64,000 bases of DNA from a virus: IMG/VR virus record IMGVR_UViG_3300021408_000004, positions 2,983 through 66,982 of that record. The stretch is one strand, 5' to 3'. Under the pieces are notes generated by a model. The model saw only the letters and a program-made list of their open reading frames with translations. It searched no databases and was not told the origin of the DNA. A program made the translations under genes and the position numbers. Shown here one piece after another: positions 34,135 through 40,560 of this stretch. Every line of letters begins with the position of its first letter. The stretch's first letter is position 1.

Positions 34135-34404
34135 CTAGACGGTGCGGAGCTTCCCCGGGTTGGCCTGCTGGTACGAGAACGCGCAGGCGTGGTCACCGAA
34201 GTACGCCACCTGCCCGTCGAGCACCACCCGGTACTTGGCCCCAGCGGGGATCTCCTCGACGCCGTCGCCCTGGACCACAGCGAGGGGCTCGCACGGCGGC
34301 GTCCCCCGGTGGGCGATCCCGGTCATGCCCTCGGCGACGACGTCACCGGAGGTGCGGATCCCGCGCCCGGCCCGTGCCGCCCGTCCACCGCAGCCGCAGC
34401 CCAT
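34135..34404 (-). CDS. Small MGCGCG-type protein
   Basis: Coupled to the protease stop; an MxCxCG start is common at this position in actinophage head modules. Confidence 0.65.
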   Translation of the reverse strand: MGCGCGGRAARAGRGIRTSGDVVAEGMTGIAHRGTPPCEPLAVVQGDGVEEIPAGAKYRVVLDGQVAYFGDHACAFSYQQANPGKLRTV

Positions 34405-37400
34405 CAGGTCCGGCCCCGTCGAGCAGCGGCCAGCACCCGGGCGGCCGGCGTGCGGCCGACCGACGCGGCGAGCCGGGAGATCGTGAGCGCCCGGAGGCGG
34501 GCGGCGTCGGCCTCGGCGGTGGCCACGTGCATCACCGGCACCGCGGAGGCCACGAGGGCGTCACCGCGGTAGCTGGTCGACGCGTGGGGCATCGCGAACC
34601 CGGGGACGGGCACGAGGAGCGCCGCTACCAGCTCCTGCCAGCCGGAGCGGTCCGGGTGCGACTGCCAGTCCCCGGAGCAGGTGCAGGCGAGCGCCCGGGC
34701 GATCGTGGCCGCGCTGGTGCCGGGGAGGACGTGGCCGGCCATCCAGACGCCACCGAGCCGCTTGGACTCGCCGACCGCGACCATGCCGAACACGGAGCAC
34801 GAGTTGTCGTAGTACTCGGGCGCGGTCTCGTGGCTGTTGCGGGCCATCGTGGCGTGGCCGCAGCCCATGGTGACGGGGCCGGCGGGTACCGGGCCCTCGG
34901 CGGCGACGGCCCACTTGCCCATGAACCGGGCGTAGTCGACGTTCCCCTCAGGGGCGAACTGGGTGCGCCCCGCCTTCGCGTAGGCCCGGTGGTTGGTGCC
35001 GAACGGGGCGACAAGCCCGTACAGGCGGCCCTCGTCGGTGATCGACAGGGCGCTGGTGATCTCGACGTCGGTGGGCTCCTGGAACCAGAAGGCCGGCGGG
35101 AGATCGGTCAGCGTGATGGCGTACGCCGCGGCGGTGAGCGCCGCAGCCTGGGCGCCGGCCATGACCTCCTCGACGTGCCGATCTTGCCCGCACCCTCCGC
35201 AGGAGCCGCCGCAGCCGCAGCCCTCGCCGATCCGGACGTGAGCGGCCACGGCCGGCGGGAGGAGGCCTCCGGTGGCCAGGACGACCTCACCAGCGGGCAG
35301 CTCGGCCGGCGCCGGAGCGGCGTCGGCGAACATGGCCACCAGCTCGGCCGTGGGCTCCAGCACGGCGTCGGCCTGGGCCGGCGTCGACACGGAGGTCAGC
35401 TCAGCCACGTTGACGCCGTCGAGGATCACCTTCTCCGGCTCCAGCAGGACCTCCTCGAACGGGCTGTCGGGGTCGATCTCCAGCATCGGGTCGGCGGCTT
35501 CGCCCGGCGCCGGCCACACGAGGGTGACCTTCGGCGCGGTCTCGTCGCCCCCGATGCTGACCCACCGGTCGAACCCGGCGACGGCCCGGCGGGCGTGCTC
35601 CATGGCGTCGGGGTTGTCGAGGTCGAGGCGGACGAACCCGTAGTCGGCGGTGGGGGTCTCGACGATGCGGGTCACCAGGCCGACGGGCACAACGCGGGGG
35701 GTGCCGCCGTGGGCGGAGCTGTTCACCTGGGAGTGGTAGGCGAACGGGGGCTCCCGGTAGGTCATGTTCGTGAACACCCGGCCCGAGTCGCGCAGGCCGG
35801 TCGCGACGCCCTGCCGGTGCATGATCGCCCGGAGATGCTCGCCCGGCTGGGCCGGCGGCCCGTCGTCGGTCTCGGCGCTGGCCGAGGCCGGGTCACCCGA
35901 GGCCGGAGCCCCAGGCTCGACGGCGGCGGTCAGCCCGTGTCGGACGAACGCAGCGTCGATCATCGCTGCCAGGTCGGCGCTGTCCATGTCGATGTCCTCC
36001 TCCGGCAGGGCGCCGGCCAGGGTGAAGTCGTAGGCCTCGGCGCCGCGCGTCACGCGGAGCCGGTCGAACGTGATGGGCCCTTCGAACTGCTGGGCCACCT
36101 GCTGGACAGTGCCAGCGGGGTCGGGCTGGTAGGAGAGGCACACGTGCGCCACCCACGGGGAGTGCTGCTCGGGCGGCATCCACAGACCCGCCTCACCGTT
36201 GGCGACCCCAGCCCGCTGGACCGTGACCCAGGTAGCCGCGTGGAGGGGCTCCAGGTCGGCGCCGCCCACGGACAGGACCAGACAGCTCTCGGGCCCGGAC
36301 ATGTTCCAGACCGCGGCGCCGAAGACGTTGGCCTCGACCGGAGGCCGGTCGGCGGCCAGCTGCTCGGCCTGGGCCAGCAGGGCGTCGAAGGTGGCGTCGG
36401 GGATCTCGGCGCCGTCGCCCAGGTAGGCGAGGGTCAGGTGGATGGCCTCGGGCGGTTCGCCCTGGGCGACCGCCCACGCCTCGGGGTCGGCCGGCACCAG
36501 CGCCACCATGGCGCCGGTGTGGGGCTCGCCGGTGGTGGTGTCCACCTGGGGCGGTCCGGAGACGGCGGCGGCGGCGAGGGGCTCGGTGGCGACGTCGTCG
36601 ACGATGCCACCCTGCTGACGGCCCTCGGCCAGGAGCGGATCAGCGGACTCGGTAAAAATGACAGTACACCTACAATTCCCGGTGACTAGGTTGTTGGCGA
36701 TGTACCACCCCGCCCCAGTGTCGAGGTTGTAGACCTCGTGGCCGCCCGGAAGCACCTCGACCTCAACGACCTGCGTCGGCGCTACGAAGAGGGCGACCCC
36801 GTGGCGACTATGGCCGCCGACCTCGGGGTCTCCCGACCGGTCATCGTCCGGCGCCTCCAGGAGCTTGGCCTTTCGGTTCGCTCGCGCGGTCAGGCCCAAC
36901 AGCTGCGTATGGATCGACTCGGGCCGGCCGAGCGCCTGGCATTGGCGGAGGCCGCCCACGCGGCCAGGCGGCGCCCCCTCGTCCCAGCCGGCCCCCGGAG
37001 CCCAGGAGCGGAAGCACGCGCCGTCGCCACCGCGGTCGGCCGCAGCCGCTGCGTGGGCCACGGTGAGGCCGAACTGATCGACCTGCTCCGGGGTCGCAGC
37101 CTGGACGTCGACCCCCAGGCTCCCGCTCACGGGTACAACATCGACGTGGCCGTAGGCCCCGTCGCCGTGGAAGTCCACTGGAGCGCCAGCCACCCGCTGA
37201 GGGGAGCCCGCCAGCGCCGCAAGCTCGTAGACCTCTGCGATCTCGGGTGGTGGGTCCTGTTCGTGTGGCTGTCCGGTCAGCTCCCCACGGAGCACACCGC
37301 GGACGCAGTCGTCGCCTACCTGGAGTGCGCCCAGCGTGCGCCAGCCGGCCACAGTCAGTATCGGGTGGTTCGGGGTTCCGGTCAGCTCGTCACCGGAGGC

Positions 37401-38231
37401 GAACCGGATCCGGAACAGCTCGCCGTCGTAGCGCCGCGCCGTAGCCGCCCGTAGCCCGGGCCACTGCACCCGCGTGGAGCCCACCAGGCAGTTGACGACC
37501 TCGCGCGCCGGCCCGTCGGGGTCGCCCGGCACCATGAGAGCGGAGCCACCGACGTCGAACGCTGTGCCCCGAGGCTGGACCTGGCCGTCGGCGGCCCGGT
37601 GCGTCGGGCGGGTGCGGTTGTCCATCGTCGAGAGCCACTGCCGGTACGGGGGGGCGCTGTCGCCCATCAGGTCGATGCGGGCCTGGGCGCCCATGTTGCT
37701 CGCGGCGATCACCTCGGTCCGGGCCAGGGTCTCGGCCTGACGGGCGGTCAGGTCGGTGACGTCACGGATCCGGGCCCGCAGGGCGCTGACGCCTTCGCCC
37801 TCGGAGAACCCCTCGACCAGCTCGGCCCGGGCCTTGCCCCACGCCTCTTCCCCGAGCGGGTAGAACCGGTTCTCGACCCCCTGGAGGTACGTCGCGGCGG
37901 CGTGGTTCATCAGGGCGTCGTCGACGTCCAGGACCGCGATCCCGAGCCCCAGCACCTGCTCGACCGCGGCCTGGCCGCCGGTCTCGTAGACGTGAGCGAA
38001 CCAGGGGAGGACCTCGTCATGCACCGCGGCCCGCCACTGGACATCGATGGCGGAGAGGTCGTCGAGGCTGGCCCGAGCCTGGGCCTCCTCACCCCCGGCC
38101 GCGGTGACGGCGGCGACAGCGAACCGGGAAGCGACGCCGGCCATGATCGGCCCGAGGGCGTCGAGCATGACCGAGGTGGCCTCGGCCTCCAGGGCCTCGA
38201 CCCGGGCCCGGTGAGCGGCCCTCCAGTCCAT
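34404..38231 (-). CDS. MuF minor head protein (intein-containing), 2H phosphoesterase and capsid maturation protease fusion
   Basis: LARTE, WLSTMDNRTRPTH..ADGQ, PGDP...VVN/CRC (MuF); HLT and HVC (2H); C-terminal GRLYG, G..TMGCGHA, GVWMAG, SGDW, VPVPGF; ATG 38231 overlaps the portal stop. Confidence 0.85.
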   Translation of the reverse strand: MDWRAAHRARVEALEAEATSVMLDALGPIMAGVASRFAVAAVTAAGGEEAQARASLDDLSAIDVQWRAAVHDEVLPWFAHVYETGGQAAVEQVLGLGIAVLDVDDALMNHAAATYLQGVENRFYPLGEEAWGKARAELVEGFSEGEGVSALRARIRDVTDLTARQAETLARTEVIAASNMGAQARIDLMGDSAPPYRQWLSTMDNRTRPTHRAADGQVQPRGTAFDVGGSALMVPGDPDGPAREVVNCLVGSTRVQWPGLRAATARRYDGELFRIRFASGDELTGTPNHPILTVAGWRTLGALQVGDDCVRGVLRGELTGQPHEQDPPPEIAEVYELAALAGSPQRVAGAPVDFHGDGAYGHVDVVPVSGSLGVDVQAATPEQVDQFGLTVAHAAAAADRGGDGACFRSWAPGAGWDEGAPPGRVGGLRQCQALGRPESIHTQLLGLTARANRKAKLLEAPDDDRSGDPEVGGHSRHGVALFVAPTQVVEVEVLPGGHEVYNLDTGAGWYIANNLVTGNCRCTVIFTESADPLLAEGRQQGGIVDDVATEPLAAAAVSGPPQVDTTTGEPHTGAMVALVPADPEAWAVAQGEPPEAIHLTLAYLGDGAEIPDATFDALLAQAEQLAADRPPVEANVFGAAVWNMSGPESCLVLSVGGADLEPLHAATWVTVQRAGVANGEAGLWMPPEQHSPWVAHVCLSYQPDPAGTVQQVAQQFEGPITFDRLRVTRGAEAYDFTLAGALPEEDIDMDSADLAAMIDAAFVRHGLTAAVEPGAPASGDPASASAETDDGPPAQPGEHLRAIMHRQGVATGLRDSGRVFTNMTYREPPFAYHSQVNSSAHGGTPRVVPVGLVTRIVETPTADYGFVRLDLDNPDAMEHARRAVAGFDRWVSIGGDETAPKVTLVWPAPGEAADPMLEIDPDSPFEEVLLEPEKVILDGVNVAELTSVSTPAQADAVLEPTAELVAMFADAAPAPAELPAGEVVLATGGLLPPAVAAHVRIGEGCGCGGSCGGCGQDRHVEEVMAGAQAAALTAAAYAITLTDLPPAFWFQEPTDVEITSALSITDEGRLYGLVAPFGTNHRAYAKAGRTQFAPEGNVDYARFMGKWAVAAEGPVPAGPVTMGCGHATMARNSHETAPEYYDNSCSVFGMVAVGESKRLGGVWMAGHVLPGTSAATIARALACTCSGDWQSHPDRSGWQELVAALLVPVPGFAMPHASTSYRGDALVASAVPVMHVATAEADAARLRALTISRLAASVGRTPAARVLAAARRGRT
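36675..37490 (-). mobile_element. Intein (272 aa) in the MuF NCRC motif
   Basis: Block A CLVGSTRV, block B LTGTPNHPIL, block F VYNLDT, terminal TGN followed by +1 Cys; removal restores EVVN-CRC. Confidence 0.9.
36738..37454 (+). CDS. HTH plus DUF559/Vsr-like endonuclease encoded antisense inside the intein
   Basis: RYEEG..VATMAADLGVSRPVIVRRLQELG (HTH); GEAEL...Q....YNIDVA...VAVEVH....H...R..L...GWWVLFVW (Vsr/DUF559-type PD-(D/E)XK); GAGG at 36723. Confidence 0.8.
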   Translation: MAARKHLDLNDLRRRYEEGDPVATMAADLGVSRPVIVRRLQELGLSVRSRGQAQQLRMDRLGPAERLALAEAAHAARRRPLVPAGPRSPGAEARAVATAVGRSRCVGHGEAELIDLLRGRSLDVDPQAPAHGYNIDVAVGPVAVEVHWSASHPLRGARQRRKLVDLCDLGWWVLFVWLSGQLPTEHTADAVVAYLECAQRAPAGHSQYRVVRGSGQLVTGGEPDPEQLAVVAPRRSRP

Positions 38232-40261
38232 CAGGACGCCCTCGACATGGCGGCGGCGGCCAGCACCTGCTCGGCCGGCGACAGCGTCGGAGCGGCGGCC
38301 ATGTAGGCCTCCAGGAGATCCCACGAGTGGACGGTGGCGTTGCGGATCACGTGCCGGGTGTAGTCGTCGAGCGTCGCGGCCAGCGACGTCGGACAGACCT
38401 GGAGGCGGGCGGCGACCTCGGGCACCCTGTCCCACGCCCCGTCGAGGAGACCGTCGATGGGCTTGGCCCACACGGCCCCGGCGTTGCAGACCGTGTGCAT
38501 CAGGTGCGGCTGGGCGTCGAGGCGGGGGTCGAGGTCGCGGGCGCGGCGGGTGGCGTTGCGGAGCCGGTTCCCGGCCCGTTCCAGGGCCCGGTGCACGAGA
38601 CCGTCAGCGGCGGCCACGAGCGCCTGGTCGACCTGCGCGGCCCGCACACCAGCCGGGCGGATCGGGGACGGGTCGGCGGCCTCGGACGGTGCGTCGTCGT
38701 CGGGCCCGGTGTCGGGCTCGCCCCCGACCTCGGGTGTGGCCGGTTCCTCATCGACGGGCCCCGGCGCACCCGGCGCCTGGCCGGGCGGGGCCGGCGCCAC
38801 GGGGGCGGGCAGCTCGGCCTCGGTGAACACGTTCAGCTTGATGAGCGCCGCTCGCTGGATGGCGGCATCGCCCCCAGGCTCGGCGGCCTTGATGAGCAGC
38901 CGGCGGTCGACCTCGGCCTGCTCGGGCGGCTCGGCCTCGGACAGCCCGGTCTCCGCCCGCAGGGTGTCGCCCCCGACTTCGAACCGGTCGTACGCCAACA
39001 CGGTGTCGTCGGAGCGGTCGGGCTTGGCCGTCGAGTCGGACAGGTCGTACCAGGCGATGATCTCGGCGCCGTCGGCGTCGCGGATGTCCTGGGCCTCGAC
39101 GGCCTGGGCCAGCAGCGTCCCGCCGTCGGGCAGGTCGAACGCCATGCCCTGCGCCTGCGCCTCGGTCACCAGGCCCGGCAGCAGGTACCCGCGGGTGATG
39201 CCGTCGCACACCAGCTCCAGGTTCGGGCGCACGTGCAGCTTCACGCCCTCGTCCTGGGTGATCGCCTTCCCCCAGTGGTTCTCCTGCTCACCGGTCAGCG
39301 CCCGGGCCGGCATGTCCATCGCCGTCGCGAGCCGGCGGAGCAGCTCATCGCGCAGGGTGACCGAGTGCTCGTCGAACGGCGTCCCAAACGTGATGTGCTT
39401 GAGCTTGTCGATGTGCTCGCCCTTCGCCTGGAAGACGAAAGGCACATAGGCCGCCGCGCTCGACCGGTCAGCGATCGGGGCCGTCGTGTTCTCCATGAAC
39501 TCCTGGAGCCACTCGTCGAACCCGGTCACCTTCCCGTCACGGTGAGGGAACTCGATCTCGGTGGGGACCGCGAACACACCGGCGCCGGCCAGGCGGGAGA
39601 CGGCGGCGGCCTGGATGGCCTGCGTGAGGGTGAACAGCTCGGAGAGGATCCCGAGGGCGCCACGGACGGGGCTGTCGGGGCGCCAGTGCCGCTGGGGGTC
39701 GGGCTTGTGGACCTTGACCACGATCCCGCCGTCGAGGGGGAGCCAGTCGTTCGCGGCGTCGCCGGTCTGGACCTCGTACATGGGGCGGCCGTCGTGGCCC
39801 AGCTGCGGGGACAGGCGGATCTCCTCGGCCGAGCGCACCTGCCACGAGAACCCGCCACCGTTACGCGGGTCGAACCCGCACATGAACCCCACGCCCGGGG
39901 TCATCAGGTAGACGCCCCACTGGCGCAGCAGGGCGGCCTGGCCGCCCACGCCACCAGCGAGCTGGGCCATGAGCACCTGCGCCGGGTGATCGTCGGGCAG
40001 CGGCACCGGCTCGGAGCCGGGCGCCTCGCGCTTCGCCGCGATCAGGCGGGCGCCGCCCATGCTGTTGCCCAGCCACGTCTCAGCGTGCCGTAGCTCACCG
40101 GTGTTGTTCCGCATGAACCAGGCGTCGGCGTGCCACGCCGCGGGCATCGGGGCATCCACCCGGGTGGCCGGCAGGATCTTGGCGGAAGCGGTGAGTGACC
40201 TCGGTGGCGGACCCGCCCCGCGGCGCCGTTGGCGGGTGCGGAGCCGGAGGCGGTCGGCCAC
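38231..40261 (-). CDS. Portal protein
   Basis: SLTASA, GELR...W, RLIAA, PDP...DSPVR, SRLAGAG, RLA..MD.P..LTG...NHW; position before MuF. Confidence 0.85.
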   Translation of the reverse strand: MADRLRLRTRQRRRGAGPPPRSLTASAKILPATRVDAPMPAAWHADAWFMRNNTGELRHAETWLGNSMGGARLIAAKREAPGSEPVPLPDDHPAQVLMAQLAGGVGGQAALLRQWGVYLMTPGVGFMCGFDPRNGGGFSWQVRSAEEIRLSPQLGHDGRPMYEVQTGDAANDWLPLDGGIVVKVHKPDPQRHWRPDSPVRGALGILSELFTLTQAIQAAAVSRLAGAGVFAVPTEIEFPHRDGKVTGFDEWLQEFMENTTAPIADRSSAAAYVPFVFQAKGEHIDKLKHITFGTPFDEHSVTLRDELLRRLATAMDMPARALTGEQENHWGKAITQDEGVKLHVRPNLELVCDGITRGYLLPGLVTEAQAQGMAFDLPDGGTLLAQAVEAQDIRDADGAEIIAWYDLSDSTAKPDRSDDTVLAYDRFEVGGDTLRAETGLSEAEPPEQAEVDRRLLIKAAEPGGDAAIQRAALIKLNVFTEAELPAPVAPAPPGQAPGAPGPVDEEPATPEVGGEPDTGPDDDAPSEAADPSPIRPAGVRAAQVDQALVAAADGLVHRALERAGNRLRNATRRARDLDPRLDAQPHLMHTVCNAGAVWAKPIDGLLDGAWDRVPEVAARLQVCPTSLAATLDDYTRHVIRNATVHSWDLLEAYMAAAPTLSPAEQVLAAAAMSRAS

Positions 40262-40560
40262 TAGTTCTCCTCGGTGTCGTGCGTCTCGGAGGCGACGATC
40301 CAGGCCGCTACGTAGGCCGAGGCCGGCCACACGAGGAGCGGGGCCGGGAGCCCGTAGTGGACGTCCGCGGCGAGCGTCACCAGGCCGGCGACCCACACGG
40401 ACATGCACCAGGGGCAGGAGGTCAGGTACTCCTGCCAGTCGCCCCGAGCGGCGACCCAGGAGCGGGCCCGGGCAACGGGCGGGAACGCGTCGGCCACGAG
40501 GAGCCGAGTTGCTCGCGCCACCGCGAGAGTGAGCAGCACCAGCAGCAGGAACACGTTCAC
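40261..40560 (-). CDS. DUF1360-like membrane protein
   Basis: ARATRLL..D, LTSCPWCMSVW; TACGCT -10 seven nt before GTG. Confidence 0.7.
   Translation of the reverse strand: MNVFLLLVLLTLAVARATRLLVADAFPPVARARSWVAARGDWQEYLTSCPWCMSVWVAGLVTLAADVHYGLPAPLLVWPASAYVAAWIVASETHDTEEN

Follow-up and report, generated by a model that had tools for sequence, protein, structure and literature searches.

A putative Vsr-like homing endonuclease gene on the strand opposite a contiguous intein of a phage MuF head gene

Introduction

In canonical bifunctional inteins, such as PI-SceI and PI-PfuI, the intein polypeptide includes the endonuclease as an in-frame domain. Can the mobility function of an intein instead be encoded on the other strand of the same DNA? 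The question is raised by a minus-strand gene for a MuF-family head-morphogenesis protein in the IMG/VR virus record IMGVR_UViG_3300021408_000004. The gene is split by a 272-residue intein, and the plus strand holds a 238-codon open reading frame (ORF) wholly within the intein. We analyzed 64,000 nucleotides of this record (positions 2,983 to 66,982; hereafter, the window), which make up most of the 66,982-base record, judged 93% complete. A preliminary description of the locus had proposed that the plus-strand ORF encodes a nuclease for intein mobility, made as a separate protein. Our results make it quite probable that the locus is a two-strand mobile unit in a phage MuF head gene, composed of a minus-strand intein and an antisense gene for a Vsr-like homing endonuclease.

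At about 73% GC, the window contains 157 ORFs of at least 150 residues, including a 771-residue antisense ORF, and therefore ORF length alone means nothing here. The openness of the plus-strand frame in the window is by itself not beyond chance. The case thus rests on homology, the predicted fold, the codon positions of the substitutions, and the avoidance of stop codons in low-GC relatives.

Results

Architecture of the Locus

The nested genes and the parts of the intein are as follows.

34404..38471, minus strand: MuF-family head-morphogenesis/minor capsid gene; longest ORF, 1355 codons
36675..37490, minus strand: contiguous class-1 intein, 272 residues; Cys1 at 37488-37490, Asn272 at 36675-36677
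37302..37490, minus strand: N-terminal Hint lobe (blocks A, B, and N4), intein residues 1-63
36741..37301, minus strand: central "passenger" stretch, intein residues 64-250; antisense reading of the nuclease gene, mostly without predicted fold
36675..36800, minus strand: C-terminal Hint lobe (blocks F and G; HEVYNLDTGAGWYIANNLVTGN), intein residues 231-272
36738..37454, plus strand: homing-endonuclease-like gene (HEG), 238 residues; GTG start at 36738-36740, TAG stop at 37452-37454; wholly within the intein

The intein interrupts the MuF motif in the form ...EVVN/CLVGSTRV...TGTPNHPILT...HEVYNLDTGAGWYIANNLVTGN/CRCTVIF (slashes mark the junctions), with a +1 Cys that is part of the NCRC motif of MuF. 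All class-1 residues are present (C1, T39-P-N-H42, the C-terminal N272, and the +1 Cys). In a 20-sequence alignment, columns C1, T39, N41, H42, P43, V253, N255, and N272 are invariant. An AlphaFold2 (AF2) model of the intein frame, built with this alignment, gave pLDDT values (predicted local distance difference test) of 77-97 for residues 1-70 and 81-97 for the C-terminal lobe. The values fell below 50 at residues 119-131, 135-137, and 141-230, with residues 80-118 being intermediate. The top Foldseek matches of this model were intein splicing domains, led by the Mtu RecA mini-intein 5i0a (E 6e-4, prob 1.00). The Pfam family Intein_splicing (PF14890) appears in the precomputed annotation of several homologues. 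Judged from its motifs and the model, 36675-37490 is a class-1 intein with a Hint fold, and it is predicted to splice.

The HEG and the intein frame are read on identical triplets (register offset 0). Opposite the stop codon of the HEG lies the codon of intein Leu13, and opposite its GTG lies the His codon with which block F begins. Read on the plus strand, intein residues 14-63 double as the 3′ end of the nuclease gene, including the following core.

37356..37376, both strands: dual-coding core; block B TPNHPIL (minus) lies antisense to HEG Q207-G213, QYRVVRG (plus)

In this core, HEG residues R209, V210, and G213 are invariant, and so are T39, N41, H42, and P43 on the opposite strand. In the HEG model, the core lies in a β-hairpin (strands 208-212 and 217-221, pLDDT 82-92). 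Every element that the preliminary description had listed was found in its place: the CLVGSTRV, TPNH, and TGN/C motifs of an intein splitting VVN-CRC, the plus-strand ORF in exact codon register, and the overlap of its 3′ end with block B.

Predicted Fold of the HEG Product

The AF2 model of the HEG product had a pLDDT of 77.3 and a predicted template modeling score (pTM) of 0.68. It comprises two modules.

36747..36899, plus strand: helix-turn-helix (HTH) DNA-binding module, HEG residues 4-54; Pfam HTH_58 above cutoff
37050..37400, plus strand: Vsr-like (EDxHD-type) nuclease domain, HEG residues 105-221; Y133-N-x-D136, A143-V-E145, H147/H152, G170-W171

The N-terminus of the model matched the HTH domains of GcrA, a resolvase, and a transposase, in agreement with the HTH that had been suspected from the sequence. 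For the nuclease part, VIA-align rather than Foldseek gave a clear structural ranking. The predicted domain has the Vsr-like catalytic fold.

Frame-Specific Selection

Given this register, position 3 of a plus codon equals position 1 of a minus codon, and the two frames can therefore be told apart by where the excess of substitutions falls. We counted variable sites in gap-free alignments of three lineages. The center was taken from the HEG ATG to the end of block N4 (about 190 codons), and Fisher tests compared position 1 with position 3 in the center and in the exteins. Variable sites in the center (plus positions 1/2/3) and amino acid identities were as follows.

Entero, 9 sequences: 57/28/102; identity 0.84 in the plus frame vs. 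0.69 in the minus frame; p=1.7e-14
GordA, 3 sequences: 40/20/81; identity 0.85 (plus) vs. 0.68 (minus); p=3.5e-8
GordB, 3 sequences: 47/15/71; identity 0.85 (plus) vs. 0.76 (minus); p=1.9e-10

The exteins showed the excess at plus position 1 (164/50/74 for the N-extein and 91/16/25 for the C-extein in Entero). The N-terminal Hint lobe, which is read in both frames, was intermediate (28/8/17 in Entero, 10/2/10 in GordA, and 9/0/4 in GordB). For the window, the comparison was made with its nearest relative, L022. The center differed at 46/28/65 sites, with an amino acid identity of 0.69 in the plus frame vs. 0.59 in the minus frame. Within the N-terminal Hint part overlapped by the HEG, counted with the HEG stop codon at its end to no material effect, there were 13/4/11 differences, and the identity was 0.75 in the minus frame vs. 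0.67 in the plus frame. The Hint parts gave 27 differences at position 1 vs. 16 at position 3 (p=0.02). In the aligned genes, these substitution patterns show that amino acid selection acts in the center on the plus frame and in the Hint blocks on the minus frame.

Avoidance of Antisense Stop Codons

An antisense stop can arise only from TTA, CTA, and TCA codons in the HEG, so avoiding them keeps the intein frame open. The HEGs of three phages contained none of these codons.

Vibrio phage 1.113.A (43% GC): 16 Leu and 26 Ser codons; 0 TTA, CTA, or TCA observed vs. 13.7 expected; P=4.6e-8
Idiomarinaceae phage 1N2-2: 16 Leu and 21 Ser codons; 0 observed vs. 12.1 expected, from a small local codon-usage sample; P=4.3e-7
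Salmonella phage PK2: 18 Leu and 15 Ser codons; 0 observed vs. 5.9 expected, likewise from a small local sample; P=0.0012

Across the genome of the Vibrio phage, TTA, CTA, and TCA account for 43.5% of the Leu codons and 25.8% of the Ser codons. The intein frame is also kept open by selection.

The preliminary description had read the insert of the intein as antisense filler, and this reading held up. The AF2 confidence is below 50 over most of the center, no Pfam family was found there, and the substitutions follow the plus frame. It had looked to selection on both strands across homologues for a decision, and the plus frame is constrained in the center in 3/3 lineages. Of the features that it had named as speaking against the proposal, those open to computation did not appear: stops interrupt the plus frame in none of the 20 loci, including phages of 43-54% GC, and AF2 with the 20-sequence alignment gave no folded, conserved minus-strand insert.

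Relatives and Distribution

A tblastn search of 50,697 phage records with the plus ORF returned 103 records at 26-37% identity, with a nearly full-length match in 102. By phage host, these were Salmonella (62), Gordonia (15), Pseudomonas (14), Vibrio (3), and others; the unit was found in phages of Salmonella, Escherichia, Pantoea, Vibrio, Pseudomonas, and Idiomarinaceae. A second tblastn search of the phage collection (113 records) added phages of Aggregatibacter, Haemophilus, and Klebsiella. All 40 matches listed of the 103 lay under a single long coding sequence (CDS) annotated as head-morphogenesis, minor capsid, structural, hypothetical, or NAD+--asparagine ADP-ribosyltransferase. Taking both searches, the matches listed (40/103 and 40/113 records) lay under head, minor capsid, intein-annotated, or unnamed (hypothetical) CDSs. 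Additional overlapping CDSs under the match occurred only in the PK2 and vB_StyS-sam rows among the matches listed. In PK2, the gene caller had annotated the antisense ORF as a 269-residue hypothetical protein, starting from an upstream ATG.

In 20 annotated regions (19 distinct phages), the HEG was on the strand opposite the annotated gene. Both frames were open and in register in 20/20 loci from actinobacterial and proteobacterial phages with GC contents of 0.43-0.73; for L004, the register was confirmed from the CDS coordinates. The HEG frame remained open over 233-303 codons in phages at 43-54% GC.

Searching 1.84 billion cluster representatives with an 8-sequence profile gave 14,271 matches at E<=1e-3 and 1405 at E<=1e-30. 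The representatives were counted by protein only, and the 1405 may comprise antisense-in-intein as well as free-standing genes. Many of the representatives carry extra N-terminal HTH repeats. A word-indexed database search with the HEG returned only 7 proteins. The plus-ORF protein search of viral contigs and genome contigs yielded no close relative, and the intein-protein search yielded one, L022, with 64% identity in the intein frame.

The motif that follows AVEV differs among the relatives. It reads VEVFGGGW(A/S) in the enterobacterial and Vibrio phages (L001, L002, L005, and L008-L014), GGxWH in metagenomic relatives, and HWSASH in the window. The predicted general-base His is thus Ala or Ser in the enterobacterial/Vibrio clade, where the ORF is still under purifying selection. 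The activity or the mechanism of these nucleases may differ, judging from the motif.

Three annotations of related proteins are worth recording. The intein-bearing MuF gene is annotated as "NAD+--asparagine ADP-ribosyltransferase" in some Jersey-like GenBank records, and P0157 and P0160 carry PF03496 in their precomputed annotation. P0165, which is 1305 residues long and contains the Pfam domains UDG and DNA polymerase A, carries a relative of the intein (30% identity over all 272 residues). This similarity suggests that the intein family has switched host genes.

Translation Start of the HEG

The start of the HEG is interlocked with block F.

36723..36740, plus strand: HEG translation-start region; GAGG at 36723-36726, 11 nucleotides before the GTG at 36738-36740

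The GAGG and the GTG are the reverse complement of the block F codons (His...Asn-Leu). In 20/20 loci, the HEG start is the complement of a His codon at or just before block F (ATG in 18, GTG in 2). An AGG-containing motif lies 8-11 nucleotides upstream of the start in all 20 (GAGG in 12, AAGG in 4, TAGG in 3, and CAGG in 1). This start-site pattern is suggestive, although partly forced by the conservation of block F. At both ends, then, the HEG mirrors conserved intein blocks, with its start codon and Shine-Dalgarno-like motif facing block F and its C-terminal hairpin facing block B.

In the Vibrio phage locus L005, a promoter-like site was seen at 1227-1254 on the plus strand (TTGAGC, 16 nucleotides, TATAAT, with TG; 10/12 matches), 46 nucleotides upstream of the HEG ATG (1300).

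Intein-Less Alleles

The MuF gene of PK2 (1860 nucleotides) matched 348 phage records, 58 of which cover at least 80% of the gene. Among the 60 matches listed, 46 were two-piece matches covering 52-57% of the gene. The intein-less allele spans 1044 nucleotides, that is, 1860 minus 816. In the Jersey-like phage SETP13, the uninterrupted motif reads PPAHPN/CRSS, and the protein is 97.1% identical to that of PK2 without the 272 residues. Such precise presence or absence among close Jersey-like relatives is what a homing element predicts.

We also compared the flanks of the insertion site in PK2 (L001) and SETP13 (L023) over 24 nucleotides per side. The N side differed at 5/24 positions, all synonymous, and the C side at 4/24. 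These differences could reflect target-site divergence or co-conversion.

The MuF Host Gene and Its Surroundings

A long series of minus-strand ORFs spans the region around the intein; on that strand, the portal ORF (38231..40408) is next to the MuF ORF. The database product P0156 is identical to the MuF ORF (100% identity) over 1275 residues, which by arithmetic places the start near 38231. The MuF ORF contains the Pfam domain Phage_Mu_F at residues 215-298 (47.4 bits, cutoff 29.6) and has many PHROG matches labeled head morphogenesis, among them phrog_15127 and phrog_2468.

The gene is a very large fusion. Downstream of MuF and the intein, residues ~650-820 form a LigT/2H-phosphoesterase-like region (PF13563, E 3.4e-5, below cutoff; phrog_2659 "RNA ligase", 3.1e-21). 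The C-terminal ~330 residues match PHROGs labeled portal, head maturation protease, and virion structural protein. The 771-residue plus-strand ORF (34374-36689) is antisense to the MuF C-extein and adjoins the nuclease gene. It is rich in Gly, Arg, and Val, and it is probably a high-GC artefact.

Discussion

Proposed Mechanism

We propose that the two strands of the locus serve splicing and homing separately. On the minus strand, the contiguous intein would be translated as part of MuF. The prediction is that splicing by the Hint lobes (residues 1-63 and ~231-272) at N/C of NCRC restores MuF. The ~190 central residues are the antisense reading of the nuclease gene, mostly without a confident fold. 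From the plus strand, a free-standing 238-residue protein would be transcribed and translated, combining an HTH with a Vsr-like nuclease of the same kind as I-Bth0305I (EDxHD). This nuclease would cut intein-less MuF alleles during co-infection, and repair would copy in the whole unit of intein and nuclease gene. Production of the nuclease from an antisense transcript might uncouple homing from late expression; this last step is speculative.

Evidence against the Proposal and a Possible Loss of Homing

A number of observations weigh against the proposed two-strand unit, at the level of the protein, its expression, and its mobility. The assignment to the Vsr/DUF559 type in the preliminary description stands on the predicted fold. 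The Pfam family REase_MTES_1575 matched HEG residues 110-177 at E 0.002, below its curated cutoff. Foldseek found no PDB match to the HEG model at E<=0.001; 1vsr was matched at E 0.038 (prob 0.99), which is not significant alone. D136 is invariant, and H152 of the window follows it by 16 residues vs. 17 for D196/H213 of I-Bth0305I, a comparison of spacing only. The loss of the motif His in the enterobacterial/Vibrio clade means that not all members need be active nucleases. On the intein side, PF14890 scored 21.4 bits in the window (E 2.4e-4), below the curated cutoff of 35.8. The inteins of the window and L022 end in Thr-Gly-Asn (36675-36683 in the window), with Gly rather than His as the penultimate residue; the inteins of other relatives end in HN, SN, or RN. 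A penultimate His is common in class-1 inteins, but it is not obligatory.

As for expression, a sigma-70 scan found no promoter in the window, nor was a terminator found there. The scan of PK2 found no plus-strand promoter upstream of the HEG. The promoter-like site of L005 lies inside the antisense of the intein/C-extein junction, and 6 such sites in the region vs. 2.9 expected is within chance. The Shine-Dalgarno-like motif is weak independent evidence because the conservation of block F partly forces it. The sequencing runs that contain window DNA are soil-metagenome DNA runs only, which may be its source, with no RNA run among them. The selection signal specific to the window comes from one pair, the window and L022 (p=0.02). 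Protein searches of viral contigs and genome contigs found no intein-less allele of the window's own lineage.

Alternatively, the antisense gene could be real and have once encoded a homing endonuclease, but no longer drive homing in the lineage of the window. The gene would then be decaying or be kept for DNA binding, regulation, or inter-phage competition, and the intein would be inherited vertically. Most of the VSR-like cases described earlier look vertically inherited (bioRxiv 10.1101/2025.01.02.630785). The purifying selection on enterobacterial/Vibrio genes that lack the motif His, and the failure of the contig searches to find an intein-less close relative of the window, point the same way. 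Against this stand the retention of D136, E145, H147/H152, and G170-W171 in the window ORF and the plus-frame constraint visible against L022. The presence or absence of the unit in Jersey-like phages is both precise and frequent, as active or recent homing predicts. We consider this loss of homing unlikely, and we retain the mobile two-strand unit as the preferred explanation.

A Possible Function of the In-Frame Insert and the Artefact Question

Could the in-frame insert itself be a new endonuclease or another functional domain, with the plus ORF as the passenger? F107-H108-G109-D110 of the intein frame is invariant in the 20 sequences. However, FHGD is the mirror of the invariant AVE active-site strand of the HEG on the plus strand. 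The insert has no predicted fold, as the AF2 pLDDT is 26-53 across intein residues 101-230, and the Pfam scan of the intein frame found no family besides Intein_splicing, with none in the central stretch. In all three lineages, the center is less conserved in the minus frame than in the plus frame (0.69 vs. 0.84, 0.68 vs. 0.85, and 0.76 vs. 0.85). On these grounds, we rejected a functional insert as very improbable. We likewise dismissed, as hardly credible at all, the idea that the plus ORF is a GC-rich antisense artefact whose conservation only mirrors selection on the intein frame: the window is full of long spurious ORFs at ~73% GC, and motifs such as AVEV and YRVVRG exactly mirror DFHGD and TPNHPIL, but the open frames in 43-54% GC phages, the third-position excess on the plus frame in 3/3 lineages, the confidently predicted nuclease and HTH folds, and the 1405 profile matches at E<=1e-30 contradict it.

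Wider Reading and Significance

A broader interpretation is offered only tentatively. The antisense nuclease and the intein might form one old, obligately co-evolving two-strand module, spread across phages of at least two bacterial phyla rather than being an actinophage oddity. The enterobacterial/Vibrio branch may have an altered or non-cleaving role.

About 700 bases encode two proteins on opposite strands at this locus, one of which is missed by standard gene callers. The layout supports the view that inteins gain mobility by capturing free-standing endonuclease genes, and it would offer a natural case of splicing and homing by separate polypeptides. Many isolates of the Jersey-like Salmonella phages carry the intein and many lack it, so these phages provide a ready system for studying whether homing is driven by an antisense endonuclease.

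Comparison with Known Systems

The arrangement shares with PI-SceI and PI-PfuI the interruption of the Hint domain at the same slot, between blocks N4 and F; here, the endonuclease is a separate polypeptide from the other strand. An Ssp DnaX-type intein with its endonuclease outside the intein frame was reportedly noted by Gorbalenya in 1998, according to the 2025 preprint discussed below. Phillips et al. described inteins of the Ssp DnaX type whose LAGLIDADG endonuclease is out-of-frame or anti-sense (bioRxiv 10.64898/2026.09.14.751524). As in our case, the endonuclease lies in a frame other than that of the intein, and frame-specific selection marks the overlapping ORF as constrained. Those inteins have LAGLIDADG endonucleases, dnaX as the host gene, and cellular genomes, whereas the present unit has a Vsr-like nuclease, MuF, and a phage.

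In "fractured genes", a free-standing Vsr-like or GIY-YIG endonuclease gene lies between the halves of a split intein (Dassa et al. 2009, PMC2677866). The same kind of endonuclease is made as a separate protein and is nested in the endonuclease slot of the intein. There, the host gene and the intein are broken up into two separately translated genes, with an endonuclease gene of the same orientation between them; in the present case, the intein frame is unbroken (20/20 loci), and the endonuclease is on the other strand. Another point of comparison is I-Bth0305I, an EDxHD (Vsr-like) homing endonuclease with conserved catalytic D196 and H213 (Taylor et al. 2011, PMC3239194). It is encoded on the sense strand, in a group I intron of recA, in contrast to the antisense location within an intein. 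The DNA-binding part of the HEG product is an HTH (HTH_58/GcrA-like), unlike that of I-Bth0305I, and the window has HP in place of the HD of the motif. The sequence similarity to the I-Bth0305I family is marginal (profile E 0.097).

The preliminary description had taken the architecture to be undescribed, but this did not hold. Gosselin, Arsenault, and Gogarten reported that VSR-like endonucleases occur in anti-sense within contiguous inteins of minor capsid proteins in actinophages (bioRxiv 10.1101/2025.01.02.630785), and the window matches the layout given in the parts of the preprint used here. In both, a phage minor capsid (MuF-like) gene contains a contiguous intein, an endonuclease ORF is antisense to the endonuclease slot, and the in-frame insert lacks a recognizable fold. 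The window is thus a further example of an already described rare layout, and the gain specific to it is small, because the layout is already in the preprint. The published cases are PhagesDB phages from a survey of actinophages only, whereas the window comes from a soil-metagenome virus record and the unit also occurs in proteobacterial phages. The VSR-like carrier phages of the preprint (clusters 60 and 91) are in its Supplemental Table 1, and an overlap with the Gordonia phages used here is possible. The main-text parts examined contain no codon-position or stop-avoidance tests for the VSR-like class. Beyond the preprint, the present analysis may add the occurrence in proteobacterial phages, the codon-position and stop-avoidance statistics, the interlock between the HEG start and block F, and the loss of the motif His in the enterobacterial/Vibrio branch.

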